From positions 1 through 45,490 of the IMG/VR virus record IMGVR_UViG_3300025282_000066: a DNA stretch of 45,490 bases; one strand, given 5' to 3'. Origin of the DNA: a virus. Taxonomy: Duplodnaviria; Caudoviricetes. The translations under genes and the position numbers were made by a program. The notes under the pieces are model-generated. The model was not told the DNA's origin. It saw only the letters and a program-made list of their open reading frames with translations, and made no database searches. This document shows, one piece after another, positions 3,001-34,987 of this stretch (positions are counted from its first letter, which is position 1; each line of letters starts with the position of its first letter).

Positions 3001-6000
3001 TAGATTACAAGGTTGGCATAAAGTTGCTCGTCAAGATCTTTTAGAAGCTTTGGAAAACGATCTCATGGCTGGAGACGCTATAAACTATTTTGTAGCATTA
3101 GAGTTTATAACAAGAGTAGAGAAAGCCTTTAGACCTCTCTATAAAGAAGCTAAAGGAAGATATGGTTTCATAAGTCATCTTAAAGAAGATACAGGCGAAC
3201 CAGTATTTCTAACAAATAAACATGACGTACAAGCTTTTACAGAAATAGTAAGAAGAGCTATAAAATCTAGACTTGATAAATATATTGCATCTGAGAGTGG
3301 ACACAGAGATCTAAATAAATTAGAACCTATTCTGGGTATTTTGGGATACACAAGAGATAAAGATTTTGTTAGCTTAAGTATAGATCATGTTACTAGTATG
3401 ATTATAAAACATATGGGTAAACTAACTCCTGAGGGTGAACAGATCAAGTGGTCTATAGAAGCTTTTGGTAATGGTGAAATTGATTGGGCTCCGGCTGTAG
3501 AAATAGGAGCGGGCTTAGTAGACTTACTCACAGGATCGCCTCTCGCTGTTCAAAGAGGAATAGAAAGTAATGTTCTCCATAATGAAGATATTCGAACAGA
3601 AGAACAAGATCCCGGCGGGGAATCTATTCGGCTTCGTCAAACTCGACGGGGTGAGAGTAATAGATCTGCCCCGATATCTTTGTTTCACTTGGCTAGTGTA
3701 GTTAACCAGTATCGTTTTATGAAGAGAATTAACTATCTTTTACAGCATGATGAATTTACTCCAGAACAAAGAGAAGCTGTCGAAGCATGGATAGAAAAAG
3801 TTAATAGCGAAGGTACACCTAATCCTCTGGGCTTTAGGGCTGGTTTTAGAGTTAGTCCTCACTATATGGGAGGATTCTTAGATCAAGTAATACCTTCCAA
3901 AGAAACACTAACGGAATGGGGTTTGACGTTTTTATTAGATTTACCAAACTTAGCCCATAGTGTAATTCATGATCAAATCTCTGTTTCTCAAAATAATCCT
4001 TTGCGGTTCAGAGGAGATTTAAAAAACTTTTCAGAGGATTTCTCACATGGGGATGATATTATATTACCTTTCCATTGGTGGGGTGAAGTTTTATCTTATG
4101 AACAAATGTCTCCTACGCTTGAAGGATTAAGCGAAGGTTTACTAGACTATGAAGCTGCTCGTTATAGGGAGTGGCGTGAAGCCAACCCAGACTTAAGTAT
4201 TACTGATTTGTTCTCTGTACAAACACATGTTGACAGAACAGGTAGCGGTAGGTGGGAAATGAAAGCCCTGTCTTTGGCCGCCGATCCCGGAGCTATAGAT
4301 GCTTTAGTTAGTGAACTTAAAGATACACATGGTACAAAAACAATATCAAAAGAAATAAAAAGAGATGGCTTATTTAATACTATCTTAACGCACCGAGGGT
4401 TTACTGAGAAAGATCTTTCAGATCATTATTTAGGTTTAGCTTTAGAGGTAGCACAACTTATTACTTCTCATAGAAACCACGAAATTGTAAAAGCCTTAGG
4501 ACCTATGCTTACAGCTTTTGGACAACTCGATGGAATAACAACTGTAGAAGAATTAATAGAAAGAAGCGAAACAAACGATATCATTAAAACTTTACGGAAA
4601 GTTTTTAAAGTACCTGCAATGCGTTTTATATACGAAGGTACTATGAGAAACTTTAAAAAGGAGTTTATCCTAGCAAACAAAGGTAAGGCTAGAGAGGCTA
4701 TATTGGAATTAGGAGAGCTGTTAGGTTATGATTTCTATGGGAAAAACCACGAAGAACTAGAAGCCTTAGCGACAATACTTTATAAGGTTGGCGTTAATAA
4801 TATGTCTATAGCTTTACAAGAGGCTTCTTTAGGCACAAGAAAGAAACCAAGTCAAGTTTCAATTACCGAAAGAGGAACTGGAATAAGCCATGCTATGAGA
4901 ACTGCGGTAATGAAATACCTCTCTTTGAATAGATCCACCGATGCTAATATAACATTAATTCCAGAACTTGCTGAAGGTTGGAAGGCTGTTATTAAAGCTA
5001 AGTCTCTAGAAGATCCAAAGTCTGGTACGGGCGTTGAGGCTATTGTGGTTAATGAAGAAACTGGAGCAGAACACCGAGTTTCTTTAGATATTACAGAAAT
5101 TTCTGACAAGCCTCAAGAAGCTGACAAGAAGAATAGTCTTATCAAAGCCGACGAAGCCTTAAAACTTTTTGAAGCCGCTTTAAAGAAAGCAGCTATTTAT
5201 GACTTTGGAGAAGACGTTGATTTTGAAGAAGCTATGGAAAAAACTAGAGAAAGGTATACAAATTGGAGTAAGATTCAGGCTTATCTAAAAGAACGAAGGA
5301 ATCGATTCCTTACAATAGGAGAACTTAATGAACTTAAGGCCATGGCTTATCCCAGTACTCCCCAAACAGATATGGCTGTCTTTAGAGGTCTTAATATGTT
5401 AGGGGCCGCAACCTACCAAATAAATCTTGAAAGAGCACAGTTATTAGCTGATGCTATGGGGATTGCTGGTTTTGATGCCGAAATTCAGCTCGCTAGTATG
5501 ATGAATAAGAATATGTATTTCCCTGTGGGATATTCAACTATGTCTGATAGAGGTTATCCAGGTTTACAAATTATGTCTACTCTTACAGGTATAGCTTTAG
5601 AAAGAGCTGCTGTAAGACCTTTAAGAATTAGGGATAACACAACCGGAAAGATGGTTGCCTTCCCTTATAAGAGTTTTGAAGAATTTATAAAGGCTAAACA
5701 AGAAGCCTTTGAAGCTACAGGAGGAGTCTGGGATAAAGCTAAACTTAGAGAGACCTTTAAAGAATTCTTAAGAGATGTAGAGAATGCTGAGGAATCTCTT
5801 GGTTTATATGATACCGCAGATAATCCTTTCCATAAATTATCTAGAGAAGATGCAAAGAAGAAAGTAGAGGATCTAATAACCTTACAGCAATTTATCTGGT
5901 GGGCTAGTTATGAAGCTCCTCCAGCTTCTGTATTCCCTGATTATACTACTGAAGTTTCTGATGAAGCCTTATTACAAGAGCTCCAAGAAGATTGGACCAG

Positions 6001-9000
6001 TCACTCAGAAAGAATGTATAAAGAATTACCTAGAGAAATGGAGATAGAGGTTAACGATGCTAGTGATCAAGAATTAAAATTAAAAGGTAAGGCATCATTG
6101 ATACGTAGTAATGAAGCTAGTAAAAAGACAGGATACCCTATTCAACTATACCATAGAAGTGAGGTAGATGATAGTCGATATATAGACTCAAGTAATCCAA
6201 AGGGGTTTATGTCTACGCAACCTTTATATCAATCCTTACCTTTCCATGATAGAGGAATATTGGCTTTTCAGAGAAGAGCTTTACAGAATAAAGTAGACAG
6301 TCTGTTAGGACCAATTGCGGGTCTTCGAGAAGTTATAGCGCCAATTCCCGGCGTAGATAACTCTCTTGGGTGGGCTTCTCCTTGGAGCGAAAAAACACTA
6401 CCCGCTCGTAGAACAACACTAGCCGAGTATCTACAGCTTTATGGTAAAAATGAAGAGGGAATGTTAGCAGGAACTATAGCAAGAGATTTAGATACTTGGG
6501 CTAGTCGTAGAGGTTTATTAAATGAATTACACGATAAACCTGAATTCTATCCTTATTACTTCTTGATTAGAGAAATTGAAAAAACCTATCAAAGATTTGT
6601 AAAGTATGCTAGATCAGAAATGTCTGAGGAAGAGTTGATATTTAGAAGATCTGAGTGGTTAACTGCTCTCCATAAATTAGACGAGGTATCACGTAATATT
6701 GTTGAGTATGAACACTCTGGTCTAACTTTAGATGGTAAGGCTAGTCTGTTGGCTTTGGTCCGACCTATCCATGATAAAGCTACTTGGAAAGAGATTCTAA
6801 CAAGTACTGTTACCGAAGATCATGCAGAAGGTAAACTTCTTTCACCAACACTAATACACACAGAACTTAAAGCTCCTCTAATGCCAAGTGAAGGTACGCC
6901 TATATTTGAAACCGCGGAAGATAAAGCTTATTGGGATGAGCATATTGGTGAAGCTCATTGGAAAGATATAGTAAATGAATTAACTATAGGGTCTGGTATT
7001 ATCCAAGCCCATGATTTTAATCGTTTCTTAATGGTTCCACTTTACCAGTCCTATATTAGTGAAGTCTTAAAAACATACAAAAGACCCGATGGTACTAAGC
7101 CTTATGCAGATTCTTCTATCTATAAAGATCCTAGAAAGTGGGAAGAAGCGGTAGAAAGACAAGATAGAAAAGAAATTATTAGACGGGCAAAAAATATAGC
7201 GAGAGGCTCAAAAGGTGTGTCGATAATGTTAGATATCTCGGTTGTAGAGTATGCCGATGAAAATAATCCAGATGGTCCTAATCTTGTCAAGCTTATGGTT
7301 GAAAGTGCCGTTGGTCAAACTGTACAAAAAGGAAAAACTAAAACAGAAGTCTCTTTTAATAGTAGACACGCATCAGCTGAAGTAGGCTTTGGTTTCTTAA
7401 GTAGAAGTCCTAGAATATATAAACTTATTGGTGGCAGGTTTAAGATCCATTTAACTCCCGAAGGTGCTCTTAAGTTATTTGGAATTACAGATAATATAAG
7501 ACCTTTAGACGAGTTACAAAATGCTGCTATATCGAATAAAATCTTTGGGGTTAAGTTTGATCAAAACAATGAACCACTTAGGGCTAAGCCTTTACAAGAC
7601 ATAATTAGAGATGCTATTGGTTTTACTACTAGACATCAAATAGAAGAAGCAACTAGAATTAGCGATGCTTTAAACCTAATTGTTAGGCAATCACGGGCCG
7701 ATAAATCTCAAGGTCCTCGTATGATTTCTCATAAACAAGTTACGATAGATCAATTTGGATTAGACGTAGTAGATCTTCACGCTTATAAGACAGGAGAAAT
7801 AGCTCCTCCAGAAGGAAGAACACTTGCTTGGAGAGAAGCTGTTCTCTCACCAATTACAGAATTTCTTCATAGTATAGAAGAAGAAAATCTTTTTAATCCT
7901 TACTTCGATATTCATGCTGAGTTAACCTCTCTTATAAAAAGAGTAAGAGAAGATGTTGGCCCAAGTTATCAACATGCTTTAGGAATCTCTATTGCCCTAT
8001 CCTCCTTAATGATTAATGGGGCTTCAAGAATTCCTTCTGATAGTATGATTATACCCTTCCTTGATCCTCAAATCTACAACACTAGAAGGATAGCCGACAG
8101 CGGTAAAGTCGATATTGATCCCCTTATCAATGAAGCACAGGCCTTATATAGAAAGCTTGTTATTTTCCAAGACTCAGATTCCTTTATTAAGACTTTACCA
8201 GTTTATCACGCTGCGAGAACTTTTGCTTTTGAAATGAGTCTAGATCCCGCTGCTGATATTGAAACTAGTACCGAAGAGGTGTTTATAAACTGGCTTAAGG
8301 AAAAAGGATTATATGAGTTTGATTTAGGTCAGCCAGCGAAAAGCAGTTTCCTTGAATTTGAGGCTGGTCGAGATACTGAACCAAAAATCTATTATAGCTA
8401 TAATCAACATTTAGAAAATTATAAACCCGGCCTGTCTGATGAGGAAAAAAGAAGACAGCTTATCCTGTTGTCTTTAGATGCTGCTCTATCTCATCAAGAA
8501 ACTGCTAACAATCTAAGGGTAGAGTTTGATCAGACTAATCTTGATTCGGAAGAATCAGAGTTAGATACACTTAAGAGTGTATTCTTAGGTAATGTATCTA
8601 AAGACCATGATACGGCTCTGAAATTTGCAGAGACTAGAGATAATATAACTAGACCACATTTAAGAAGAGTATTGAAAAAAATACAGGGTATGGAAGAAAG
8701 AGGAATAGTTAAAGGAAAAGAAACACGATTACTGAGACAACTAATCTTAAACGCTTATGCTATGAATCCTTTGATAGTTAGAGATCTCATGTTTGATTTA
8801 GAAGCCCATTCTATTAAATCTGGTAAAACTGAAGAAGGACAATACTATATTAGATTTGGAGAACGGTTAAAGAGAATAGGAAAGGATCCTCTAGATATTG
8901 TACAAATCTTTGCTCATGAGGTTTCTCATATTGCTAGGGCTAAATTTATCTCAAGCAATTCAGGAGAGTGGGATGCTTTTCAGGCTCTCTTGAGAGGACG

Positions 9001-12000
9001 AGGAAAAGGTCTTGTAAAGAAATTAGTAATGGCATGGCATGGTAATAGATGGAATTCGTCTGCCCAAGAAGAGTATAACAACTATGTAACCAAAGGTCCC
9101 GAAGAATTTATAGCAGCATTGGGACAGTTCTTCTTATTAAAAGATATGTTACCCACAATTAAAAATATGACTACAGAAGAAGCTAAGACTCTCCAAACAG
9201 CTTTGGGGTTTGTGGGCAGGATTATGTCTTTTGTCCGGAATGTATTCTCAGATCTAGATCATGTGTGGTCTCGATTCTTTGTTAGTAATGATGAAGTGAA
9301 TATTTTAATGCATAGATTATTTGGACTAGATATAACAACACCAAACTATAGTCAAGTCTTAGATGTAGAAAATACTGGTCCCCTTACCTTTAATTGGATG
9401 AATAGATTTACTGATGATGATTGGCAACTATCTGAGGGACAACGAGGTACTATGGAAGAAATAGATGCTAGATTTGAAGATGCAGTTGATCATAGAAACA
9501 TATTAGAAATGATGCAAGAAAAAGGTACTATTACCGATGAACAGCTACGTAAGTTAAATAGTCTTCGTAATATGACAGACAGACGTTTAGAAAGCGGGAT
9601 TAGTATTTTTGAATTCTATGACCATCTTCCACATACTATGGCAAAGTTTGGTACCGATGTTAGTATGGGAGACCATACTTGGCAAGTATTAGACCTAGAA
9701 GCTGTATTAGATTCTTCTTTAGGAAACTCCACTGAAATACAACTAGATAGAATAGTTGCTTTCCAGTATGGTGTAAATCAAATGAGACATAAGTTTGGGA
9801 ACCAAATTCAAGATAATGCTGGTGAATTTGCTATGCGTATGAGTAAAGCTTTAGGTAAACTGGGAAGATTTATGGGACTCGGTAGAAATAGAACAGTAGA
9901 TGAAGACCCTATCAGAACCAGAGTACTTAGTGGTATCGCCGGGCATACTGGTAATGAGTATACTTGGGCAGCACCACATATTATTCCTATCTGGTTAACT
10001 ACGCTTATTGATGAGCATATTACTAATACCAGAGGACATTATGATACTCTAGAAGGACTTCCTTCTTTAAGAAAATCTTTAGAAGAAGTAGTCAATGTCG
10101 AAAATGTCTTATTTAGATTACACGGTGTATTACAAAATGAGCTCCTTAGTCCACTCGCTTCTTTTATAAAAGGAGATAACACACCCGGTAAAAAAACCAG
10201 AGAGATTCTCAAGGAAGTAAGTGCTGCTTTTACTTTATTAGTAGAAAACGAAACAGAGACAGATCTAGGATTTTCTGAAGAAACAAAAATTAGATTGGCT
10301 AATCTTAGCCCTAAAAAAAGAGAACTCTTCTATTCTACAATAAAAGAAATGGCACAGGTTATGCGAAGTCTTATGGAAAATATTCAAAAGTCTCGCCAAG
10401 ATTTAGGTGACTGGACAAGTGCAGCTGATTCTTTGATGGGTTACAAACTAAGTCAAGAGATTAAACAAGGGACTAATTCTTCTACTATGTTCGATGCTAT
10501 GAATGAAGAAATACATAACAGGCTATTAGATAATACCCATGACTTTGTAGATCCCTTAACTTTATTTGCCATGAATGCTTTACCCCGTTTCGATACAACA
10601 GAAAACTTAACAGAAGATCTTTTCGGTCCAAAAGGATTGTATGGAAATAAAACAGAACCCTCATCTTTATACGTTCTTTTGATTTCACAATTAGCTAAAA
10701 CTATGGATGAAACCTTTAGTTCTGAAGAAAAGGTATTAAACGCATCTCTTGATCCTGTAAAACAAACAAAGGTTGATGATTTTGTTAGAAAGTTTAAAAC
10801 CTTATTTGAGGATGGAGTTTTAAAAGAAAAGTATCTCTCAGGTTTTAGAATTACTATACAGAAACTAATGAGAGATATGGCTTCTGGAGAAATCACTTGG
10901 TCAAATCTTAATATAGCACATGTGGATAAACTAAAATTTCAATACCATCATTATTTAAAAGAATCTGGTGGTAAAGATGCTACTCATGATATGAGGGTTG
11001 ATAAGAGATTCCAATCGTTGTTCCTTAATAGAGATTCCTTGAGTTTCTTAGAACAGTCTAGAGGAGCTATAGCTTTTGAAATGCCACAGGGACGTATGCC
11101 TTTGTTAGAAGAAAGGTCTTTAACTACTGGGAAAATTTATAATGTAACCCAACTCCATACTCGAAACTTTATGAATCGTGCGTATATGGGACACTACTTA
11201 CCTAATGATGCTTGGTGGATTCCAAAAGTTAGTCAAGCTATTAGAAATCCTATAATTAGAGAAAACCTTACACTACATCCTGTTGAAACTATTAGAAGTC
11301 TAAAGAAGGGTTTGGCAGATACTACACATGAGAGAATGATCCTTCAATACCACTTAGGGATGCGTGGAGACATAGGCCACTTACTTGCTTTGTTTAAGTA
11401 CTTTAATCAGGTGGGAGATTTACATGATATGGCAGGAAATAAAGCTAGTGAGTCTGTTAGAAAAGCCATGACTAAAAGTGTAGAATTCTTAGAACAAAAA
11501 TATGCATTCTTAAGAGGCTTCCAAGAAGAAGGAACATCCTATGGTACTATGGCTGACTGGGCTTTTGAGATGGCTCCTTCAGTTACTAAGATAGCCTTTG
11601 CAGGTAACTTGGGTATTGCTTCTCTTACCGTAGAACATATGATGAATACTTTTGTAACTATGATAGGAGAAAAGAAATTATTAAATGGATTTAGAACAAT
11701 GTTTGCTCCTGTCTTTCATGGTTTATCCAGCGAAGAAACAAAATTAGTAGCAAGTGATATTGCTGATGCTGTAGAAGGAATGACACAAGGCTTCTTACCT
11801 GAGTATGAGCAAGCAGCAAGTGAAGCTGAAGCTGTATTTGGTCAGGATTTTACTAACAAGTGGGCTAGTCAAATGCTGAGATTTCCAAAACATGTTCTTA
11901 GGTCTTCCGCAACAGCTAGAATTATTACATTAAGAAAGGGTATCTACTCCCTTCTTCACAGTAATCCTGCTAAAATAAAAGTACTACTTGATCACATTGA

Positions 12001-13225
12001 AAAGAATCCATTAAAAGAGCCGGGTGATCTAGAAAGAGCCGTAAGAAAATCAAAGATTAGTTGGTGGAGTTATGGAAAAATATTAACGTATCTACAACGA
12101 TCAGGTTTACTGCATCCTGATAGAACAGAAAACTTGGCTGTTGTTTTAGAACTTGGTAATGTGAAAGATAAGTTTTATACTATAGGTAAAGTTGTCTCAC
12201 AACTGTCTGCTAGATTTGATGGTAAATCTGATTCTTATCGAAACTACATGTCAATCCTATCAGCTTTGCGACATGTGGAAAGACAATATTTAAATGAAGT
12301 AGTTGTCTCTCCTAATGCTTTTGATATCTATACAGGCTCTGATAGAAGATCACGAGCAGCAGAAATCTTTAGAAGATTCCCAGTATTATGGGCTTCTCAA
12401 ATGATGATTAGAAGATCTAACAATATGCCATTGCTAGCTTATGGAACCTTTATGGTTTCTATGTTAACTCTAGATATGATCTATATGATGTCTTTACGTC
12501 TAGCAGCTGGAACTTCTTATGAAGATCTAATGAAAGAAATAGAAGACAAGGGCTTTGGAAAGTTTATGTTAACGTATGGAGCTAGATTACCTCTTTGGGG
12601 TAGGTATTATGGTTGGATTGCTGCTGCTGCTGTAGCCCTAAGTAGAGATAATAGAATCGAGGGAGGTTTTGTTCCTGCCGCAGCAATGGCTCAGATACTT
12701 CAAAATATGTACAAATTAGGTATGTCTCCGTGGACTGATGATTATACTCAACAAGATCTAATCAATGCTTCTAGAATTCTCCCCATATTAGGAGATACAC
12801 TAGTAAGATTAAGTGTATATTCTGCTTGGGGAGATCAAATATCTAAGAAGAATCGAAGCAGACGAGGATATGGTAGTCCCTCTTCACAGTTCCAATATAC
12901 ATATACACATATGGGAGTACCTCCAGAATATGATTCAATGTCTTATGAAGCAGTAATGGGCGAGTGGTTTAATGAGATGGGACTAGAGCCAGATTTCCTA
13001 GCCTATGAGAATCAATTCAAGACATTACCGGGAACTAGATCTAATTGGGAGCAGATGGAACAGGAGACCCATATAGACCCTGAGAAGGCTGCGAGAAGAG
13101 ACATGCCCTCCAGACCCTCCGAGATCCTTAGAAGGCCTGAGGCGGGCTCTCAGAGGCTTACAGTGGATCCTATTGAAGCTATCAAAGAAGAGCCGATTCT
13201 AGAGATACCAGAGGAGTTCAGATAA
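2..13225 (+). CDS. Giant polyvalent (probable virion/ejection) protein, 5'-truncated by the window: two ART-PolyVal-like ADP-ribosyltransferase domains, two HExxH zincin-like motifs and a putative T7/N4-type RNA polymerase domain
   Basis: The frame of ORF 95..13225 is open back to base 2 (EATAREGAQTIPVYVNLTNPLRL). ART-like signatures: YDGIVY...VIAFDPANVKSPFNRGTW and YHGT...GLHIT...YARAENPL...GYDSLVY...YIIFNPSHVKSAIANNGDFD. HEGYH at 1073; HEVSH at 8915 followed by EEFIA at 9101. RNAP-like motif A VDRTGSG (4232) and motif B RKVFKVPAMRFIYEG (4595). Confidence 0.8.
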   Translation, partial: EATAREGAQTIPVYVNLTNPLRLEGGALAFTMANVYNESMDAMLVARREGGPALLADKVRAEVKRMSKMEMGDEAAEVYFKFMNSLGYDGIVYRQMVQGEHKSTVVIAFDPANVKSPFNRGTWGLAEPRMLLQSDETFDAQQTEEYLNNHWISKLSDEEQTALGIEWNGRRVEQERGERGELGEDWIPSWIEGVSSEEQLRIQDIDNYFLLKTFQARLEFLKRLNENIAKVEDELTEKAPPKPPEVLTPSLFKKTLSEVLRKFRLGTYKKRHKAIFEAMATVVGGREVLQQLIDNEKLVITLVVKTTEEGLTPFRQPKDYKAFFAPFSLGLKGGTIPGIEMGIDTKLKLNAYAVIAAHEGYHFIWDTKHRNKRLLLRKIWAEKLLDKFSQTETGKALMKKYSDHFDSAVEQGSTINLPILEYQLLLDEPAFQSGKRRGRIRVAYSRQEAALIDKEVYLYHAKRQYLLLIIDLLNEAHSDKKALRDIQEEMGRPLTWKEAKKTFGLRPRTEEFTSRFIQIRDLSTTVFGEDLFSDKQLLTELDFEEARRQGGFAKPLRNSFAYLLIYMRRMEIIKRAGIKIPKKDWSDYVFLKKLLVKAPEYMMNFSTPKVMMQLMENQGLTIEPLTPEIVDFMGETKEKGYFYHGTTAHPDNLTDIFNTSIGAGLHITTNPFVAGRFTEGDYGRVYLLYARAENPLRVRDIDNFKSVGGLATAIADALIPHGTTAYANLLAMRSALKEEILTKITKEWHYRIETKKWSRRKYMNKSSHVDPRILELRTEVIQDIIKSYGYDSLVYLNRGEIRDRRTGKEPENLYNKMAKLRAMEFDRTGEYFSEGRDTRYLHSITDDEFRAEFPEATDSYIIFNPSHVKSAIANNGDFDLNKSSILMQTADLETQHLIDEATAWASWVEGLRSISINAKKFKRTEGKRYTESYRIWGTMPGFFRDIRKGPHITFKPALLDQEEQGTSFADVINHRNEETNYYDIDKVIMMAEYEHTRAVGRLQGWHKVARQDLLEALENDLMAGDAINYFVALEFITRVEKAFRPLYKEAKGRYGFISHLKEDTGEPVFLTNKHDVQAFTEIVRRAIKSRLDKYIASESGHRDLNKLEPILGILGYTRDKDFVSLSIDHVTSMIIKHMGKLTPEGEQIKWSIEAFGNGEIDWAPAVEIGAGLVDLLTGSPLAVQRGIESNVLHNEDIRTEEQDPGGESIRLRQTRRGESNRSAPISLFHLASVVNQYRFMKRINYLLQHDEFTPEQREAVEAWIEKVNSEGTPNPLGFRAGFRVSPHYMGGFLDQVIPSKETLTEWGLTFLLDLPNLAHSVIHDQISVSQNNPLRFRGDLKNFSEDFSHGDDIILPFHWWGEVLSYEQMSPTLEGLSEGLLDYEAARYREWREANPDLSITDLFSVQTHVDRTGSGRWEMKALSLAADPGAIDALVSELKDTHGTKTISKEIKRDGLFNTILTHRGFTEKDLSDHYLGLALEVAQLITSHRNHEIVKALGPMLTAFGQLDGITTVEELIERSETNDIIKTLRKVFKVPAMRFIYEGTMRNFKKEFILANKGKAREAILELGELLGYDFYGKNHEELEALATILYKVGVNNMSIALQEASLGTRKKPSQVSITERGTGISHAMRTAVMKYLSLNRSTDANITLIPELAEGWKAVIKAKSLEDPKSGTGVEAIVVNEETGAEHRVSLDITEISDKPQEADKKNSLIKADEALKLFEAALKKAAIYDFGEDVDFEEAMEKTRERYTNWSKIQAYLKERRNRFLTIGELNELKAMAYPSTPQTDMAVFRGLNMLGAATYQINLERAQLLADAMGIAGFDAEIQLASMMNKNMYFPVGYSTMSDRGYPGLQIMSTLTGIALERAAVRPLRIRDNTTGKMVAFPYKSFEEFIKAKQEAFEATGGVWDKAKLRETFKEFLRDVENAEESLGLYDTADNPFHKLSREDAKKKVEDLITLQQFIWWASYEAPPASVFPDYTTEVSDEALLQELQEDWTSHSERMYKELPREMEIEVNDASDQELKLKGKASLIRSNEASKKTGYPIQLYHRSEVDDSRYIDSSNPKGFMSTQPLYQSLPFHDRGILAFQRRALQNKVDSLLGPIAGLREVIAPIPGVDNSLGWASPWSEKTLPARRTTLAEYLQLYGKNEEGMLAGTIARDLDTWASRRGLLNELHDKPEFYPYYFLIREIEKTYQRFVKYARSEMSEEELIFRRSEWLTALHKLDEVSRNIVEYEHSGLTLDGKASLLALVRPIHDKATWKEILTSTVTEDHAEGKLLSPTLIHTELKAPLMPSEGTPIFETAEDKAYWDEHIGEAHWKDIVNELTIGSGIIQAHDFNRFLMVPLYQSYISEVLKTYKRPDGTKPYADSSIYKDPRKWEEAVERQDRKEIIRRAKNIARGSKGVSIMLDISVVEYADENNPDGPNLVKLMVESAVGQTVQKGKTKTEVSFNSRHASAEVGFGFLSRSPRIYKLIGGRFKIHLTPEGALKLFGITDNIRPLDELQNAAISNKIFGVKFDQNNEPLRAKPLQDIIRDAIGFTTRHQIEEATRISDALNLIVRQSRADKSQGPRMISHKQVTIDQFGLDVVDLHAYKTGEIAPPEGRTLAWREAVLSPITEFLHSIEEENLFNPYFDIHAELTSLIKRVREDVGPSYQHALGISIALSSLMINGASRIPSDSMIIPFLDPQIYNTRRIADSGKVDIDPLINEAQALYRKLVIFQDSDSFIKTLPVYHAARTFAFEMSLDPAADIETSTEEVFINWLKEKGLYEFDLGQPAKSSFLEFEAGRDTEPKIYYSYNQHLENYKPGLSDEEKRRQLILLSLDAALSHQETANNLRVEFDQTNLDSEESELDTLKSVFLGNVSKDHDTALKFAETRDNITRPHLRRVLKKIQGMEERGIVKGKETRLLRQLILNAYAMNPLIVRDLMFDLEAHSIKSGKTEEGQYYIRFGERLKRIGKDPLDIVQIFAHEVSHIARAKFISSNSGEWDAFQALLRGRGKGLVKKLVMAWHGNRWNSSAQEEYNNYVTKGPEEFIAALGQFFLLKDMLPTIKNMTTEEAKTLQTALGFVGRIMSFVRNVFSDLDHVWSRFFVSNDEVNILMHRLFGLDITTPNYSQVLDVENTGPLTFNWMNRFTDDDWQLSEGQRGTMEEIDARFEDAVDHRNILEMMQEKGTITDEQLRKLNSLRNMTDRRLESGISIFEFYDHLPHTMAKFGTDVSMGDHTWQVLDLEAVLDSSLGNSTEIQLDRIVAFQYGVNQMRHKFGNQIQDNAGEFAMRMSKALGKLGRFMGLGRNRTVDEDPIRTRVLSGIAGHTGNEYTWAAPHIIPIWLTTLIDEHITNTRGHYDTLEGLPSLRKSLEEVVNVENVLFRLHGVLQNELLSPLASFIKGDNTPGKKTREILKEVSAAFTLLVENETETDLGFSEETKIRLANLSPKKRELFYSTIKEMAQVMRSLMENIQKSRQDLGDWTSAADSLMGYKLSQEIKQGTNSSTMFDAMNEEIHNRLLDNTHDFVDPLTLFAMNALPRFDTTENLTEDLFGPKGLYGNKTEPSSLYVLLISQLAKTMDETFSSEEKVLNASLDPVKQTKVDDFVRKFKTLFEDGVLKEKYLSGFRITIQKLMRDMASGEITWSNLNIAHVDKLKFQYHHYLKESGGKDATHDMRVDKRFQSLFLNRDSLSFLEQSRGAIAFEMPQGRMPLLEERSLTTGKIYNVTQLHTRNFMNRAYMGHYLPNDAWWIPKVSQAIRNPIIRENLTLHPVETIRSLKKGLADTTHERMILQYHLGMRGDIGHLLALFKYFNQVGDLHDMAGNKASESVRKAMTKSVEFLEQKYAFLRGFQEEGTSYGTMADWAFEMAPSVTKIAFAGNLGIASLTVEHMMNTFVTMIGEKKLLNGFRTMFAPVFHGLSSEETKLVASDIADAVEGMTQGFLPEYEQAASEAEAVFGQDFTNKWASQMLRFPKHVLRSSATARIITLRKGIYSLLHSNPAKIKVLLDHIEKNPLKEPGDLERAVRKSKISWWSYGKILTYLQRSGLLHPDRTENLAVVLELGNVKDKFYTIGKVVSQLSARFDGKSDSYRNYMSILSALRHVERQYLNEVVVSPNAFDIYTGSDRRSRAAEIFRRFPVLWASQMMIRRSNNMPLLAYGTFMVSMLTLDMIYMMSLRLAAGTSYEDLMKEIEDKGFGKFMLTYGARLPLWGRYYGWIAAAAVALSRDNRIEGGFVPAAAMAQILQNMYKLGMSPWTDDYTQQDLINASRILPILGDTLVRLSVYSAWGDQISKKNRSRRGYGSPSSQFQYTYTHMGVPPEYDSMSYEAVMGEWFNEMGLEPDFLAYENQFKTLPGTRSNWEQMEQETHIDPEKAARRDMPSRPSEILRRPEAGSQRLTVDPIEAIKEEPILEIPEEFR

Positions 13226-13954: not shown

Positions 13955-13985
13955 GCACAGCTGTCAGCCTTCAATGGCAGCACAT

Positions 13986-14010
13986 TGTCCCTCGTCGGGA
14001 CAGAAAGGGA
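13986..14010 (+). promoter_or_regulatory. Hairpin-plus-RBS element 3 (TGTCCC-TCGTC-GGGACA-GAAAGGGA)
   Basis: 6-bp stem followed by an RBS before ATG 14012/14018. Confidence 0.45.
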
Positions 14011-14017
14011 TATGATC

Positions 14018-15790
14018 ATGAAGATCAAGATTCCCAACAAGACCGTGGCATCCCTCAAGGAAACCACGGACGCAGCCACGGAGCTGTGCTTCGAGGCTCA
14101 CTCGGAGTACGTGGCTGATCTCTACAATCGTGGTAGAGAAGCAGATGAGTTCGTGACTCGTCTGAGGAAGGATGTCCTGTATACCACAGGGCTGACCTTT
14201 AGCGTGCCATTGGCACGTAAGACACACTCGTCCATCTTGGAGGCGTACCTCAAGTACAAGCCCAAGAAGGAGGGTGCATACCCGTTCTACACCTTGGAGC
14301 CAAGCGGCAAGTTGCCTATCGTGACTCGGAATCCGAGCATGGAGGTGGGGGCCGACTGGTCCCAATCCGTCAAGTACTTCGGTACGTGTGGGCATCTGGT
14401 CGATGGCCGGATGCTGGAAGCGGTGTCTATCCACCGCAATGCTCTGCTCCACAGTGGAGCAGATGATGCAACGGATGATGCCGAGAATTATCTGCCACTA
14501 CACGTGTTGCAGATTCTGGCTAAGATGTATGGAGAGGAACAGGAATGCTTCGTCTCCTACCACCAACTCCAAGAGTCAGGGCGGATGATAGAAGAGCTCA
14601 GGGGTGGGGGCTCTGCTAACAACAAGATCTCACGAGCGGTGCTCCTGGATACAAACTTCGTGGTTTGTGATAAGGAGAACCTTGAGATCCTTGAGAACTG
14701 TATCCGAGCCAAGTACGGTGTCTCAAGCAAGATCAAGGACTGGGCATCACGAGTCCTTAATAAATACGATGTGTCAGATCACCACAAGTGCGAGGAAATC
14801 AATCTCGCCTGCTGTTGGAGAGACATCATCACCAAGGGTGGGTCTCATCACACGGTTGAGATCGATGCCCATACCAGTGGCATGGTTCACATGCTCATGC
14901 AAGTGGGACTGTGGATTCGACGAGACATCTGTGCTCGTACTAAGGGATGGGAGAAGCTCTATACTCGCATCGCTAGGATGATCAGGATGTCCTGCCCATG
15001 GGCTGGGCATCTACCCATGAGTGAGATCATGGCAATCGCTAAGAAGGTGATGTCACCTTCCATGTACGGTGGTGGGTCCACTGCCATCGTACCGCAGTTC
15101 TTCAAGAATGTTAAGCATGGAGATGGAAACTGGGTCTTCCCATCTCGCAGCTTGGTAGTTCCCGACTACTACCAGCCATTGTTCAATGAGACCATAAAGG
15201 TCTATGACAAGGGTGTTGGTCATCATGTAGATATCCTGTCGGATACTCAAGATGGGCTCACATGCTTCGACAAGGAAGTCACAAAGAAGTACTCCCAGTA
15301 CTTCCGCAAGTGCTTCCCATTTGTGAAGGGTAGAGGTAAGGAAGATCCCGGACTGTTCGGAAAGTTCATCTCTCATGGTGAGGCCAATCCGAATGGATTG
15401 ATGAAGCTTGCGGGTATGCAGGTACAAATCCATCCGTTCACAGAAGACAAGCTTCGTAAGGTAGGCGTAACAGCCTACGATGCAGAAGGTTACAGGCACA
15501 GCACTGGTGTCTATCCTCTGGTCGAGAGCAGCTACACTGACCTCATGGCGAAGCATACTCACCTACTGGACAGCTACCAGATGGCCTTGTTCGGATGCAT
15601 GGCCGAAGAAGAGGGCGTGTGTGTACGTCCGATCCTCGATGCTGTCAAGGTTCCAGCCGGGAAACTCAAGTGGGCCTTAGAGGCAGCATCACAAACATTC
15701 CTGCATGTCCATGCCAAGCCTCGCTTCCCCGTAGGAACCGAAGGCTTCAAGGCATGGCAAGGCGAAGCCCCCAGCGTTTGGGGCTTCTGA
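14018..15790 (+). CDS. Compact, divergent T7-family single-subunit RNA polymerase-like protein
   Basis: Motif A VEIDAHTSG (Asp at 14864), motif B KKVMSPSMYGG (15041), AKHTHLLDS matching T7 PNFVHSQD (15551), motif C PILDAV (Asp at 15638), in T7 RNAP order and spacing. Start moved from TTG 13985 to the RBS-supported ATG at 14018 (14012 also possible). Confidence 0.7.
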   Translation: MKIKIPNKTVASLKETTDAATELCFEAHSEYVADLYNRGREADEFVTRLRKDVLYTTGLTFSVPLARKTHSSILEAYLKYKPKKEGAYPFYTLEPSGKLPIVTRNPSMEVGADWSQSVKYFGTCGHLVDGRMLEAVSIHRNALLHSGADDATDDAENYLPLHVLQILAKMYGEEQECFVSYHQLQESGRMIEELRGGGSANNKISRAVLLDTNFVVCDKENLEILENCIRAKYGVSSKIKDWASRVLNKYDVSDHHKCEEINLACCWRDIITKGGSHHTVEIDAHTSGMVHMLMQVGLWIRRDICARTKGWEKLYTRIARMIRMSCPWAGHLPMSEIMAIAKKVMSPSMYGGGSTAIVPQFFKNVKHGDGNWVFPSRSLVVPDYYQPLFNETIKVYDKGVGHHVDILSDTQDGLTCFDKEVTKKYSQYFRKCFPFVKGRGKEDPGLFGKFISHGEANPNGLMKLAGMQVQIHPFTEDKLRKVGVTAYDAEGYRHSTGVYPLVESSYTDLMAKHTHLLDSYQMALFGCMAEEEGVCVRPILDAVKVPAGKLKWALEAASQTFLHVHAKPRFPVGTEGFKAWQGEAPSVWGF

Positions 15791-16418: not shown

Positions 16419-16600
16419 GACTATATACTTATATAGAGAACGGCATGTAGTTGCTAGTGTTACCTACTATATGTAGTGGGTCTATATAGTTGGAGTATAT
16501 AGTAGAACCTAGGGTATAACTATAGTTAGATAGGTGTTTATAATTATATAAGGATTACTCCTATGTTCTATAGAATACCTTAAGGAGTACGTGGTATCTT
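16411..16600. other. AT-rich non-coding tract with multiple short palindromes (possible origin or regulatory region)
   Basis: CTATAT-ACTT-ATATAG, CTATATAG, TAACTATAGTTA, TTCTATAGAA, CCTTAAGG; no credible ORF. Confidence 0.4.
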
Positions 16601-16899: not shown

Positions 16900-16924
16900 G
16901 TCTGCTGTTTTCCCGACCACTATC

Positions 16925-16963
16925 ACACCCTCGGTGTCCTTAGGGGCATCGAGGGTGTTTTTC
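16925..16963 (+). terminator. Rho-independent terminator
   Basis: ACACCCTCGGTGTCC-TTAG-GGGCATCGAGGGTGT stem (with G-U pairs) followed by a T run. Confidence 0.75.
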
Positions 16964-17388
16964 TGTTGACGATGGGGTATGTCCGATACAGCGTGGCTAC
17001 CCCCGTCCCTTAGTTACATCCGCCAAGGTGGGTGTACCTAAGGGGCGTAAGCCTGTCCTGAGCATGGAGTGTAAAAGTTGACTCCTTAAAGACCATTAAA
17101 CTGCTCATCTCTCGCACTTGCCTAAGCAAGCAACCAACTGCCAGTAACTGTAATGGTTATGTGGGATTCCTGTTGATTCAACAGCGGCCCATCAATACTT
17201 GAGGTGATAAGTTCATTTGAACCCACACTCAAGGACCGACAGACATCCGATGTCAGAGAGATATGCGGTATACAAATCACAAGCTCTGTGTCATTGCGGT
17301 TCAGGGAATCCGAGTTAACAAAATTCCCCCGAAGTTCCGGCTACTGGCGTAGCGTGGAGTAGCAGAGACATCTCTCTCACCAAAGAGT

Positions 17389-17476
17389 AGGATCTGTTGC
17401 CCTTGATGGGGTGGTGCCCATCTAAAGGTCAAAATATAAGACCCCACGAGAGGTTCGATTCCTCTCTGGTCCTCCA
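17389..17476 (+). ncRNA. tRNA-like structure (non-canonical)
   Basis: T-arm GAGAGG-TTCGATT-CCTCTC; AGGATC/GGTCCT acceptor-like pairing ending in CCA; internal GATGGG/CCCATC hairpin; no canonical 7-nt anticodon loop. Confidence 0.4.
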
Positions 17477-17581
17477 ATTCAGTAAATGCTACAACAAGCA
17501 TTGCCCTGCTCCTCTGGGTTATGCGAGGACATGGCCCTGTTATGATAGCAGGGAGAGCACATGAATCTACAGCTCATCTTC

Positions 17582-17663
17582 GGGGGTGACATGGAAAGTC
17601 TCCGCAGATATGGCCGCATGTCGGCACCTGCGGACTACGAGGGTTCGAATCCCTCCACCTCCA
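17582..17663 (+). ncRNA. Miniature tmRNA-like RNA (tRNA-like domain only)
   Basis: Acceptor GGGGGTG/CACCTCC-A with G3-U70; stemless D-loop ACATGGAAAGTC; TCCGCAG/CTGCGGA helix; T-arm GAGGG-TTCGAAT-CCCTC. Confidence 0.6.
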
Positions 17664-17685
17664 TTGTGCACTGTCGTGAACTGGC

Positions 17686-17783
17686 CCGACATTAAATAAC
17701 TTGACCACCCTGAGCTTACCGGCAGAGGGGACAAATATATTGAGTGGTTATACTGGAGATACGGGTTCGAGTCCCGTCGTTGG
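17686..17783 (+). ncRNA. tRNA-like structure or degenerate tRNA
   Basis: T-arm ACGGG-TTCGAGT-CCCGT (17761-17777); CCGAC/GTTGG closing pairing; TGACCAC/GTGGTTA helix. Confidence 0.3.
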
Positions 17784-18022
17784 ATAGGCGAGCCTCTAAT
17801 ATGAGGAATATAACTCGACTTATTCTAACCGTGATGTATACAGCGATGGGGTGCTCACCCCCTATAGCTCAATTGGCTAGAGCACCAGTATATCCTCTCA
17901 ATCCCTTCCATTGGATACATCCACCAACAATCGTAAGAAACTTCGATGGTGACATCAAAGCAGAAGTTGGGTGAGTCTTTATTAGACTCACGGGATGGAT
18001 CCAATAACTCAGGAGATCTAAC

Positions 18023-18151
18023 ATGACAAAAGATGAAAAAGCAGACATTGCTCTCTTGTTCAAGACACTGAATGATGCTATGATACGCATCGAGCTACTT
18101 GAAGAGGAATGGAGAAGTGTTCTATTAGGAATGCTGGAGGTAACAAAGTGA
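18023..18151 (+). CDS. Hypothetical protein (42 aa)
   Basis: AGGAG RBS; MTKDEKADIALLFKTLND... Below the track length cutoff. Confidence 0.6.
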   Translation: MTKDEKADIALLFKTLNDAMIRIELLEEEWRSVLLGMLEVTK

Positions 18152-18185
18152 TATTCTGAGGCTACATTTAAACAGGAGAACTAGC

Positions 18186-18419
18186 ATGTGTCCAGACAAG
18201 TTTCTTTTCATTCAAACCCTTGATACACCGGGAAACCACATCACTGTTGGAATGACCCAAACTAATGATGGTATATTCCTAAAGTGGATGGAAGATGTTG
18301 ATGATGAGGTTGTTCAAGTACAAATCTGTGATTCAGATGCTAACGACATTCTCAACTCAATTAAACTCACACAACAAATGATTGACAAAGCAGCAAGACT
18401 AGGAGAACTATCATGTTAG
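18186..18419 (+). CDS. Hypothetical protein
   Basis: AGGAG RBS; part of a tightly packed gene run. Confidence 0.75.
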   Translation: MCPDKFLFIQTLDTPGNHITVGMTQTNDGIFLKWMEDVDDEVVQVQICDSDANDILNSIKLTQQMIDKAARLGELSC

Positions 18420-21477: not shown

Positions 21478-21756
21478 ATGAAAAAAGACGTTGATCAAAA
21501 CTTTGGTGGATCTTTCAATGCCCACAAACATTGGAAAAAGTTACGTGAGAAGCATCGTAAAAAGGAAGCTCAAGAAGCAAGGGGTATATTTAGCCGAGCC
21601 CAACCAGAGACCTATCAACCCAACAACCAAACAATAGAAGGTTCTGAAAGAATAATATCAAAAGAATTGTATGATCTTAATTATGAGCTTGCTTTTGGTA
21701 GAATTACTAAAGAAGAATACGAACAAAGGAGATCAGAACTTGATTTGGGAGAGTGA
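21478..21756 (+). CDS. Hypothetical protein
   Basis: AAGGA RBS. The C-terminal GRITKEEYEQRR resembles a SHOCT-like helix. Confidence 0.7.
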   Translation: MKKDVDQNFGGSFNAHKHWKKLREKHRKKEAQEARGIFSRAQPETYQPNNQTIEGSERIISKELYDLNYELAFGRITKEEYEQRRSELDLGE

Positions 21757-24184
21757 AACTGAAGACGTTCAGTTAGACCGACGTAATGGTCAGATTATAT
21801 ACGAGCAGTCCATGCTGGAATATGGTCGGCACAAATACTGGAAGGACTACGAACGGGCTCCTGATGAAGGAATACCTGAGCAATGTCTTATTGATTCCTC
21901 TATCAAAGAACTAGAAAATAAATACCAAGAGTGGATTGATCGGGTATGTAGTGCTCCTAAAGTTCCTAGTTGGGTCTACCCCTTGATGGAATTAGGCTCA
22001 CGTAAGATGGCTGATATAACTATACGTGCTGTCATACGTCATTGGTTTTCTCCCTCCTATTGGAATGGAAGTTACAACGAACATATACACACACCTCCAG
22101 TAGCTCAAAAGATAGCGTGTCAGATTGCAAATGATGTATCTGATATTATTGCCTACCAACAAGCCAAAGAAGCAAACTACACCGACTGGAAGAGACAATC
22201 TAAGTTCATTAAGAACTGGACTCTAAAGAGATGCCGAGCATTCTCCAAGAAAATGCAAACCAATGTCAAATTAAGTACTAGGGCCAAGCATTCTTTCGGA
22301 CATCACATGCTAGAGATAGCCTGTAGTTCTAATATTATTGAGATGAGAAAAGAAAAGATAAAAACTAGATCAGGTAAGTTCCGTACTTGTAGTTTTGTTG
22401 AGTTCCATCCAGAGGTACTCAAAGAGTTACATAAGAGACACGATATTCTCCAGAATTCTACCTTAGTTTACAGACCAATGCTTATTCCTCCAATAGAACA
22501 TACTCTCCTTGCTTCTGGAGGATACATAACAAGAAATCTCAGAAAACCTGTAGTACAACGATATCAAAACAATTACTTTGGAGACATGCCTAAGCAGCAG
22601 AAGTTCTCAGAGCCATCAGAACTTGTTTTACGAGGCCTGAATGGCATGCAAAAAACTGAATGGACTGTGGATAAAAAGGTATATGAGGTAATGAAGAATC
22701 TGTTTGAGAACAATACTCAAATAGGTAATCTTCCGCCTTATGGGTTTGATGAGTTCATGTATTCCGAAGACTACCCAAAAGGTGGACCCAAAGAAGAACA
22801 AGCCAAATGGCTACAGATTCGAGAAGAATGTTGGGGTAATTGGTACAAATCTGAACAAGCCAGAGGACGTATGTTAGTACGGCTTGCTTTAGCCGAAGAC
22901 CTAATGAGATGGGATTACTTCTATCATGTATATACCTTAGACTTCCGGGGCCGGGCTTACACCACATGTGAATTACTATCACCACAATCCTCAGATTTTG
23001 ATCGTGGATTGATTAAGTTTGCCGTCAGAAAAAAGCTAGATAAATTTGGTATCTATTGGCGTAAAGTTAATATTGCCAACTTATTTGATCAAGACAAAGG
23101 CACCTTTGATGAACGTGTTCAATGGGTAGAAGATAATCATGATATGCTACTTAGAATTGCTCAAGATCCTTATGAGAATAAAGAATGGGTTGATGATAGA
23201 AAGAAAAAGAATAAATCTTTTCGTAGACTTCAAGCAATCTTTGATTATGCTTTAGAAGATAACTGCTCCGACATATCAGTTCAACTTGACGGAAAGTGTA
23301 ATGGGAATCAACATTGGAGCTCCATTATGAGAGATCCTGATATTGCAAAACTTACAAGTGTGTCACCCGATGACAGGCCACAAGATTTATATCAATTTGT
23401 AGCCGATGGGGTCACCAGTTATTGTAAGATGCATATTAATGAGAACCCTTGGTATGGACAGTTCCTAGACTATTGGAAAGATGGGATAAATAGGAACGTA
23501 ACTAAACGATCTACTATGTGTGAGGCCTATGGGCTTACGTTCTATGGCATCCAAAAATACATACGCTTAGAGGGTCATGTAGATTGGGTACCGCGTGAGT
23601 CCCGAGGAGGAGCCATAGTCGAACTTGCTAGGGCAACTCAAGCAGCTCTAAATACAACCTTAAGTAGTAGTAATTCCGGAAAAGAATATCTTAAAGAAAT
23701 ATCTAATGTTGCTTCTGATCTTAATCAACATCTATGTTGGACTACACCCTCTGGCTTCAAAGTAGTACACTACTATACTGAAATTCAGACTCGTAGGTCT
23801 ATAGCCAAGTTATTTAATAGCCGTGAACTACACTTCTTTGTGAAGACAGACATTCCAAATGCTAAAGCTGCAAAGCAAGCTATTTCACCTAATTATATTC
23901 ACTCACTCGATGCTGCCCATATGTTTCTCGTACTAGCTGCTTTGCTTTCACAAGGTATAACAGATTTTTGTATGGTACATGATTCCTATGGATGTCATGC
24001 TAATGATGTCCCTTTAATGGCTAAGATTACCAGAGAAGAATTTGCAGGCATGCATCGCAATAATCAACTACAGTTCTTTAAAGAAGATATAGAAAAATCT
24101 TTGGGGGTAAACCTCCCTGATGTTCCAGCACAGGGAAACTTTAATGTAGACTCTGTGCTGGACTCACAATATTTCTTTGCATAA
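21740..24184 (+). CDS. T7-type DNA-directed RNA polymerase (gp1-like)
   Basis: PMLIPP, DFRGRAY, motif A QLDGKCNGNQH, motif B RNVTKRSTMCEAYG, WTTPSGF, SPNYIHSLDAAH, motif C VHDSYG, C-terminal YFFA. Start uncertain: TTG 21740 follows AAGGAG, while the track gives 21671. Confidence 0.97.
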   Translation: MIWESETEDVQLDRRNGQIIYEQSMLEYGRHKYWKDYERAPDEGIPEQCLIDSSIKELENKYQEWIDRVCSAPKVPSWVYPLMELGSRKMADITIRAVIRHWFSPSYWNGSYNEHIHTPPVAQKIACQIANDVSDIIAYQQAKEANYTDWKRQSKFIKNWTLKRCRAFSKKMQTNVKLSTRAKHSFGHHMLEIACSSNIIEMRKEKIKTRSGKFRTCSFVEFHPEVLKELHKRHDILQNSTLVYRPMLIPPIEHTLLASGGYITRNLRKPVVQRYQNNYFGDMPKQQKFSEPSELVLRGLNGMQKTEWTVDKKVYEVMKNLFENNTQIGNLPPYGFDEFMYSEDYPKGGPKEEQAKWLQIREECWGNWYKSEQARGRMLVRLALAEDLMRWDYFYHVYTLDFRGRAYTTCELLSPQSSDFDRGLIKFAVRKKLDKFGIYWRKVNIANLFDQDKGTFDERVQWVEDNHDMLLRIAQDPYENKEWVDDRKKKNKSFRRLQAIFDYALEDNCSDISVQLDGKCNGNQHWSSIMRDPDIAKLTSVSPDDRPQDLYQFVADGVTSYCKMHINENPWYGQFLDYWKDGINRNVTKRSTMCEAYGLTFYGIQKYIRLEGHVDWVPRESRGGAIVELARATQAALNTTLSSSNSGKEYLKEISNVASDLNQHLCWTTPSGFKVVHYYTEIQTRRSIAKLFNSRELHFFVKTDIPNAKAAKQAISPNYIHSLDAAHMFLVLAALLSQGITDFCMVHDSYGCHANDVPLMAKITREEFAGMHRNNQLQFFKEDIEKSLGVNLPDVPAQGNFNVDSVLDSQYFFA

Positions 24185-26965: not shown

Positions 26966-26975
<10 letters not shown>
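26427..26975 (+). CDS. Truncated citrate synthase / citryl-CoA lyase-like protein
   Basis: ATLGGLHAP (cf. GPLHGG), VPGWGS...DP (cf. GFGH...DPR), FPNAACY (cf. PNVDFY), GRIEAW (cf. R..GW). Start 26427 or 26415. Confidence 0.65.
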
Positions 26976-27038
<63 letters not shown>

Positions 27039-27041
27039 TTA

Positions 27042-27115
27042 GGCTCCGTAGCCCAATCGGCAGAGGCAGTGGACTTAAAATCCATCAAGTGTGGGTTCGA
27101 GTCCCACCGGAGCTA
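27042..27115 (+). tRNA. tRNA-Leu(UAA), short variable arm
   Basis: GGCTCCG/CGGAGCT acceptor; GTGGA-CTTAAAA-TCCAT anticodon arm; TTCGAGT T-loop. Confidence 0.9.
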
Positions 27116-27116
27116 T

Positions 27117-27189
27117 GGGCTGGTAGCTCAGTGGTTAGAGCACACGACTCATAATCGTCTGGTCGTTGGTTCGAATCCAACCCAGCCTA
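27117..27189 (+). tRNA. tRNA with CAU anticodon, probably Ile2 (lysidine) rather than Met
   Basis: Cloverleaf; CGACTCATAATCG anticodon arm as in bacterial ileX-type tRNAs. Confidence 0.88.
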
Positions 27190-27212
27190 TTAAAATTAAC
27201 TAAGGAAAACAA

Positions 27213-34980: not shown

Positions 34981-34987
34981 AGAACAA

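Follow-up and report, generated by a model that had tools for sequence, protein, structure and literature searches.

Mycobacterium phage DS6A carries the closest described relative of the RNA reported here. The available text of PMC4131195 lists it among tmRNAs as "Mycobacterium phage DS6A (TLD only)", that is, as a tRNA-like domain (TLD) alone. Expressed in E. coli, the DS6A RNA inhibits the host tmRNA (Mao et al. 2009, as cited in the accessible parts of PMC11915505 and PMC4131195), and a DS6A-like molecule, chargeable or not, is described as a strong inhibitor of tmRNA, perhaps via SmpB titration (PMC4131195, same portion). The accessible sections of PMC11915505 count nine "standard, no CDS" entries among 97,179 tmRNA sequences; 79 of the 97,179 are from phages, and some of the nine may be phage entries. 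CDS-less tmRNAs are also described from organelles (RF02544; plastid genes of about 65 bp in Mallomonadaceae, PMC11915505, accessible sections) and consist, as here, of a TLD without a tag frame. However, these are the organelle's own tmRNA, usually permuted in mitochondria, whereas the form described below is a phage gene that would act alongside a full host tmRNA. The literature within our scope, largely outside subscription journals, held no description of a widespread phage family of TLD-only tmRNAs.

A TLD-only tmRNA gene in a T7-like phage

We analyzed the 45,490-base record of a T7-like phage, 68% complete, which we refer to as the window. Its plus strand holds, at 17582-17663, a TLD-only (CDS-less) tmRNA gene, hereafter mini-tmRNA, which is 82 nt long through the discriminator base; sequence and coordinates were checked (Table 1). 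The minimum free energy (MFE) and centroid folds coincide (-35.6 kcal/mol, z -2.89), and none of 200 shuffled sequences was equally stable. These folds bear out what the first-pass annotation had claimed for the 82 nt: an acceptor with G3-U70, A73, a stemless D-loop and a T-arm. Its 7-bp helix closed by 20 nt also stands as a helix but not as one closed by a plain loop, as the 20 nt hold a 4-bp tip hairpin. An alternative inner pairing for 17608-17621 was dropped, being broken by variants at 17612 and 17619.

Table 1 Coordinates of the mini-tmRNA gene, its parts and other features of the window
Feature	Position	Strand	Remarks
Acceptor stem, 5' strand	17582-17588	+	7 bp, pairs with 17656-17662; G3 at 17584 opposite U70
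Stemless D-loop	17589-17600	+	12 nt, unpaired in MFE and centroid folds
D-loop GG, A and G	17593-17594, 17595, 17598	+	Align with conserved tmRNA D-loop/SmpB-contact positions
P2a helix	17601-17607/17628-17634	+	7 bp enclosing 20 nt; asymmetric internal loop inside
Tip hairpin inside P2a	17613-17616/17622-17625	+	4 bp
Linker C-UAC	17635-17638	+	A 17637 corresponds to E. coli A334 (SmpB contact)
T-arm	17639-17655	+	5 bp and 7-nt loop
Acceptor stem, 3' strand, and discriminator	17656-17663	+	U70 at 17660; discriminator A73 at 17663
YrlA-like permuted tRNA mimic	17725-17916	+	T-arm, long hairpin, D-arm; 24.6 bits, E 0.02; z -3.41
Terminator-like hairpin	16925-16966	+	15 bp and T run, just ahead of the RNA cluster
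Repeated 23-31-nt motif	16477-16507, 31512-31534, 34957-34987		Possible phage promoter
Single-subunit RNA polymerase	21671-24184		Preceded by small ORFs
4376-aa protein	95-13225		ART-PolyVal ADP-ribosyltransferase domain at residues 611-847

The gene does not encode CCA (17664-17666 reads TTG), which would be added by the host. The P2 region (17601-17634) has no stop codon in any frame, so that the 82-nt RNA lacks a tag frame. For D-loop and linker positions other than A15, U17, A334 and G19 (A20, for example), we use what we take to be the E. coli numbering. The window copy departs from the family consensus in having U at the A20 position (shared by only 4 of 53 members), in lacking a U17 equivalent, its D-loop being one base short, and in a C·C mismatch at the base of P2. 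No sigma-70 promoter was found near the gene (two sites in the scan, 3.8 expected), nor any clear phage-promoter repeat ahead of it. The contig of the only matching RNA run, metatranscriptome X22, spans 17116-17330 and ends before the gene.

In Infernal searches with Rfam models and in ARAGORN, checks that the first-pass annotation had itself suggested, the locus was not scored as an ordinary tRNA. The standard tmRNA model (RF00023) matched 17582-17666 with 39.1 bits (E 1.2e-13), below its gathering score of 47. This alignment spans both ends of the model, so that its tRNA-like domain aligns end to end with the window RNA, and 38 nt of the window stand for 326 middle model positions. RF02544 (mitochondrial tmRNA) was not listed as the best match for the locus. 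ARAGORN called neither a tRNA nor a tmRNA there, and the Rfam tRNA model (RF00005) remained under its gathering score of 29 bits; across the window, ARAGORN and Rfam at gathering score reported only three tRNAs, at 26966-27190.

Other classes were considered and rejected. An ordinary tRNA (RF00005) is contradicted by both programs and by the missing D-stem and anticodon arm. Unlike a standard tmRNA, the RNA has no mRNA-like domain, with neither tag frame, resume codon, stop codon nor pseudoknots, and ARAGORN finds no tmRNA. A permuted, two-piece tmRNA fits poorly (RF04321, just 12.8 bits, E 7.4), and both halves pair within the 82 nt. As for an attP/attB scar of ssrA, both gene ends are present and paired, and no PF00589 integrase was found in the phage records G000-G002 (G000 being 68% complete).

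The DS6A RNA (L122:3479-3558; tmID 11587, Phage__Mycobacterium.9) agrees with the window RNA in its length of about 80 nt, G3·U70, A73, stemless D-loop, short P2a, asymmetric internal loop, small GC tip hairpin, linker ending in AC and T-arm, and in having neither an encoded CCA nor a tag frame. The features that mark the DS6A type are found at 17582-17663: the GG and G19 equivalent, the A334-equivalent linker, the T-arm and a short closed P2. A covariance model built from 25 IMG/VR copies, excluding both DS6A and the window sequence (R1), gave 61.0 bits for DS6A, 54.2 for the window RNA and 20.3 for the window's best tRNA; tRNA-Ala controls attain 34-44 bits under the mini-tmRNA model. Similarly, RF00023 scored 43.2 bits on DS6A versus 39.1 on the window. 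The two copies differ in setting and sequence: the window copy lies in a marine T7-like phage in which no integrase was found and adjoins a YrlA-like RNA, the 3' part of its D-loop reads AAAGUC rather than being UCGA-like, and its P2 sequence is different throughout.

Because its structure, the covariation of its family and its match to the DS6A RNA agree, we identify 17582-17663 as a TLD-only tmRNA of the DS6A type, a kind already known, though the first-pass annotation had not recognised it as such. The same fold, covariation and DS6A match uphold the earlier proposal of a mimic of the tmRNA tRNA-like domain without an mRNA-like domain. That annotation put forward three functions, namely SmpB sequestration, rescue without tagging and a decoy for anticodon nucleases, of which the first has a published precedent and the last fits poorly. 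The locus is a real, conserved RNA gene.

A family of mini-tmRNAs in viral DNA

We searched 20 of the 64 parts of IMG/VR (about a third) with a pattern that fixes only the acceptor stem, including G3·U70, and the T-arm. This yielded 121 loci, or an estimated 390 or so for the whole database. Including the window there were 122 matches: ARAGORN called 45 of them tRNA-Ala; in 12, mostly 3' ends of full tmRNAs, the acceptor stem was broken, and the other 65 fell into neither group. On anatomy, L041 and L045 were moved into the mini group from the ARAGORN calls, and the doubtful L020, L028 and L059 were removed. After this curation the family comprises 63 loci. They represent 52 distinct sequences, 68-87 nt long, among which is one identical to the window's. 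None is called a tmRNA by ARAGORN, those that were scored fall below the Rfam cut-off, and CCA is encoded in 17 of the 52. The pattern misses DS6A, whose T-stem differs, and thus undercounts the family. The TLD-only form is commoner than in print, with 52 distinct sequences against nine database entries.

The P2a helix distinguishes this group. Before the three doubtful members were dropped, 36 of 55 distinct minis had a P2a of at least 6 bp at the expected place, versus 1 of 38 tRNA-Ala and none of 10 broken-stem matches; its mean length was 6.6, against 3.4 in shuffles (p 0.017 for the window's P2a). In 25 sequences hand-picked for clean, similar length, and hence a favourable choice, the P2a covariation score was 0.415, compared with at most 0.105 in slid registers, with two-sided changes at all seven pairs and 78% of cells pairing. 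The acceptor stem (P1) covaries at pairs 5 and 6, and neither the length nor the sequence of the tip loop is conserved.

Since the first pattern had fixed G3·U70, a second was needed that placed no constraint on positions 3, 70 and 73 and was restricted to lengths of 76 and 77. It returned 43 loci, or 23 distinct sequences, of which 22 were complete and one was a mis-registered 79-nt member. All 22 complete copies carry G3·U70 and A73, a constancy that points to selection on charging. According to the part of PMC8363625 available to us, SmpB contacts A15, U17, G19 and A334 in E. coli tmRNA. The search pattern did not fix these bases, which we read from 53 members aligned with the model: 52 retain the second D-loop G, 43 the G19 equivalent, 52 the A334 equivalent and 47 the C that follows it. 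The window RNA has the second D-loop G, the equivalents of G19 and A334, and the following C. While tRNA-Ala has the alanine identity elements and T-arm in common with the window RNA, the latter lacks a D-stem and anticodon arm and has P2a and the A334-type linker, whose A, scored free of any alignment, is present in 52 of 55 minis but in only 4 of 38 tRNA-Ala controls. Judging from these positions, the conserved face of the family is the one read by AlaRS, EF-Tu and SmpB.

The mini form is rare in bacterial and archaeal genomes. There, 120 matches in 31 of 64 genome_contigs parts comprised 108 3' ends of full tmRNAs, 8 with a complete acceptor stem and 4 with a broken one; three of these 8 are among the 80 titled matches, all in MAG contigs. 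Around 38 family loci with long flanks, no full tmRNA lies within 2.5 kb, and a tRNA does in 8. Setting aside 9 near-duplicates left 29 loci with 146 neighbouring ORFs, among which we found no SmpB, an integrase or recombinase near 2 loci, and one Ro60. In a large viral contig (L040:2501-4694), a Ro60 (TROVE) gene follows about 800 bases downstream of a mini-tmRNA, and one locus that already holds a mini-tmRNA has a second, weaker model match (L021:4411-4494, 40.7 bits).

BLASTN of 17200-18000 against cultured phages gave T-arm matches only. None of seven cultured phages matched by BLAST to a family member has the mini form; five carry permuted tmRNAs, one a full tmRNA and one no match. The permuted genes (88-130 bits) are in Pseudomonas SM1, Caulobacter CcrRogue, Ruegeria RpAliso, Xanthomonas Rb1 and Alcaligenes QDWS595 (L276-L280, in this order), and the full gene is in SlimJimmy (L281); all are unannotated in their records. 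Ruegeria RpAliso has two YrlA-like matches besides its permuted tmRNA.

The phage and its non-coding RNA cluster

Besides the RNA polymerase (RNAP), the window encodes a T7-type primase/helicase, a family A polymerase, a head-tail connector, a capsid protein and the 4376-aa protein (42 of 107 ORFs scanned), and its closest cultured relatives are about 27% identical in RNAP. Twelve metagenome runs cover at least half of 16900-18300, all of them marine and three possibly the record's own source. The mini-tmRNA lies in a stretch without recognisable genes that runs from 16336 to about 18020 and separates the late genes from the small ORFs preceding the RNAP.

In a related-phage contig of run X4 the block 17582-17665 has moved behind 17990; the same joint occurs in X20, and loose contig ends start at 17665 in X4, X17, X20 and X24. 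The unit kept in related contigs matches the predicted RNA and is a movable block. Among the substitutions listed for it, which leave out changes near contig ends, 11 sites vary: nine are unpaired, one changes G-C to G·U, and one, the G>A variant at 17630, would disrupt a P2a pair, and none of the listed changes compensates for it. A 4-base insertion in related contigs falls in the tip loop.

In the complete relative G001 (70 kb, 100% complete, RNAP 64% identical to the window's), a mini-tmRNA also precedes the same set of early genes, and its P2, of 13 bp, differs entirely. Neither SmpB nor TROVE is encoded by G001, which also lacks a tyrosine integrase and a full tmRNA. The window likewise has no SmpB, and G000-G002 have no full tmRNA, tyrosine integrase (PF00589) or Ro60. 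As SmpB is found neither in the window, nor in G001, nor among the 146 ORFs at 29 family loci, any SmpB involved would be the host's. No mini-tmRNA match came from G003 and G004, two relatives that are 10% and 12% complete and may not extend to the locus.

Next to the mini-tmRNA lies the YrlA-like RNA (Table 1), a cleaner copy of which (40.3 bits, E 3.7e-6) stands beside the mini-tmRNA of G001. By eye it shows no GNCGAAN0-1G Ro60 motif as given in the accessible text of PMC4201824, and it is possibly a Y-like RNA that works without a phage Ro60. A YrlA-like search pattern matched 19 loci, two of them this phage; the 12 others that were checked lie in or at tRNA genes. Upstream, 17389-17477 holds a degenerate tRNA-like element (19.4 bits with the tRNA-Sec model) with a good T-arm, an encoded CCA and a possible CUA anticodon loop; it belongs to a 166-base stretch (17333-17498) that is absent from the otherwise identical G002. 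The structured non-coding segment 17116-17330, covered by the X22 metatranscriptome contig and by contigs of DNA run X16, has no Rfam match and a fold z of only -1.62 over 17040-17340; it is possibly an expressed RNA of no known family. A hairpin module at 17504-17576 is kept, and has moved independently, in G001 and in contigs of X4, X17, X20 and X24. Overall, the non-coding cluster is shuffled in modules.

Elsewhere in the window, a GC-rich ORF of 601 aa (13985-15790) has no Pfam, PHROG or PDB match, although PF00940 is present in 18-98% of the members of its ESM Atlas look-alikes (score 0.94-0.95). It shows no significant BLAST similarity to the main RNAP, and the 20 kb of G001 that we examined did not contain it. 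It likely represents a second, divergent T7-type RNA polymerase, as suggested by the structural look-alikes.

Proposed competition with host tmRNA and alternative readings

On balance, we think that the mini-tmRNA, charged with alanine and bound to SmpB, probably competes with host tmRNA and so lowers tagging. It would be transcribed early in infection, matured by host enzymes through RNase P cleavage of the 5' end, 3' trimming and CCA addition, and charged with alanine by the host. With host SmpB and EF-Tu, the charged TLD would then assemble into an Ala-TLD·SmpB·EF-Tu complex; crystallography has shown SmpB bound to a TLD fragment of 63 nt (PMC3929946, accessible part). Given the conserved AlaRS/EF-Tu/SmpB face and the fact that no phage SmpB was seen, such a complex with host proteins is the most likely one. 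It would enter non-stop ribosomes, which would receive one alanine, no tag and no stop codon; SmpB would be drawn from host tmRNA, and fewer stalled proteins would be tagged and degraded during infection. We favour competition because ribosome release is reported to need translation to a stop codon on tmRNA (PMC2481249, available text) and because of the DS6A result, the inhibition of tmRNA in E. coli being a published precedent for SmpB competition. G3·U70 and A73 are held in all 22 free-position copies although the inhibition is independent of charge in the accessible account of PMC4131195, which suggests more than a passive sponge. Blocking trans-translation would not be a general phage interest, as some phages need it (lambda-immP22, according to the available text of PMC2481249) and six of the seven cultured phages above have full or permuted tmRNAs.

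The same constancy of G3·U70 and A73 would also suit a tag-free rescue, the main rival reading, which we regard as possible though unlikely. The charged RNA would enter non-stop ribosomes with host SmpB, eject the mRNA and add one or more untemplated alanines; the ribosome would be freed by drop-off or a back-up release factor, and the product would escape the tag or receive a poly-Ala tail. SmpB and a TLD fragment make untemplated polyalanine in vitro (Shimizu and Ueda 2006, as cited in the accessible parts of PMC3929946 and PMC2481249), and mitochondria, alongside nuclear SmpB, as well as some plastids have retained tmRNAs without a CDS (PMC11915505, accessible sections). This reading is, however, at odds with the reported need for a tmRNA stop codon in release (PMC2481249, as above) and with the sole tested phage form, which inhibited tmRNA and did not replace it (PMC11915505, same sections); moreover, no release factor was found among the 146 neighbouring ORFs or 42 window ORFs. 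We consider it improbable that the RNA is a decoy or spare substrate for host defence nucleases cutting tRNA or tmRNA, as one of several early tRNA mimics. It does cluster with the YrlA-like RNA and the degenerate tRNA-like element ahead of early genes, similarly in G001, but it has no anticodon arm, its tip loop varies in length and sequence, the conserved part is the AlaRS and SmpB face, and a tRNA lies within 2.5 kb of only 8 of the 38 family loci.

That the locus is no RNA gene at all, but an att site or scar of host ssrA, half of a permuted tmRNA or a decayed tRNA-Ala, seems to us highly improbable. tmRNA 3' ends do serve as att sites, and account for most of the 12 broken-stem matches among the 122, and 2 of the 29 family loci have an integrase or recombinase nearby. 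Yet here the ends pair at 7 of 7 positions, P2a covaries and the block moves intact between related phages; there is no tyrosine integrase in G000-G002, the permuted model scores 12.8 bits, and neither ARAGORN nor Rfam calls a tRNA.

Competition with host tmRNA remains our preferred reading. A more far-reaching picture, which we offer only tentatively and think unlikely, is that hundreds of phages rewire ribosome rescue with a charged, SmpB-hijacking mini-tmRNA that goes into non-stop ribosomes and adds untemplated alanines in place of the degradation tag. In the T7-like clade it would be one module of a shuffled cassette of tRNA mimics, together with the Ro60-less YrlA-like RNA, placed ahead of the early genes and seizing translation quality control at the start of infection.

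What the window copy newly contributes is the T7-like clade and the cassette context, with no new mechanism. In the literature searched, as far as its accessible text goes, the TLD-only phage form is a single curiosity, that of DS6A; the 52 distinct copies in a third of IMG/VR point to a strategy against trans-translation that phages use repeatedly. A natural inhibitor of only 82 nt would also be useful for probing this pathway, and the invariant alanine mark offers a sharp comparison, charged versus unchargeable, of whether phages block or redirect ribosome rescue.
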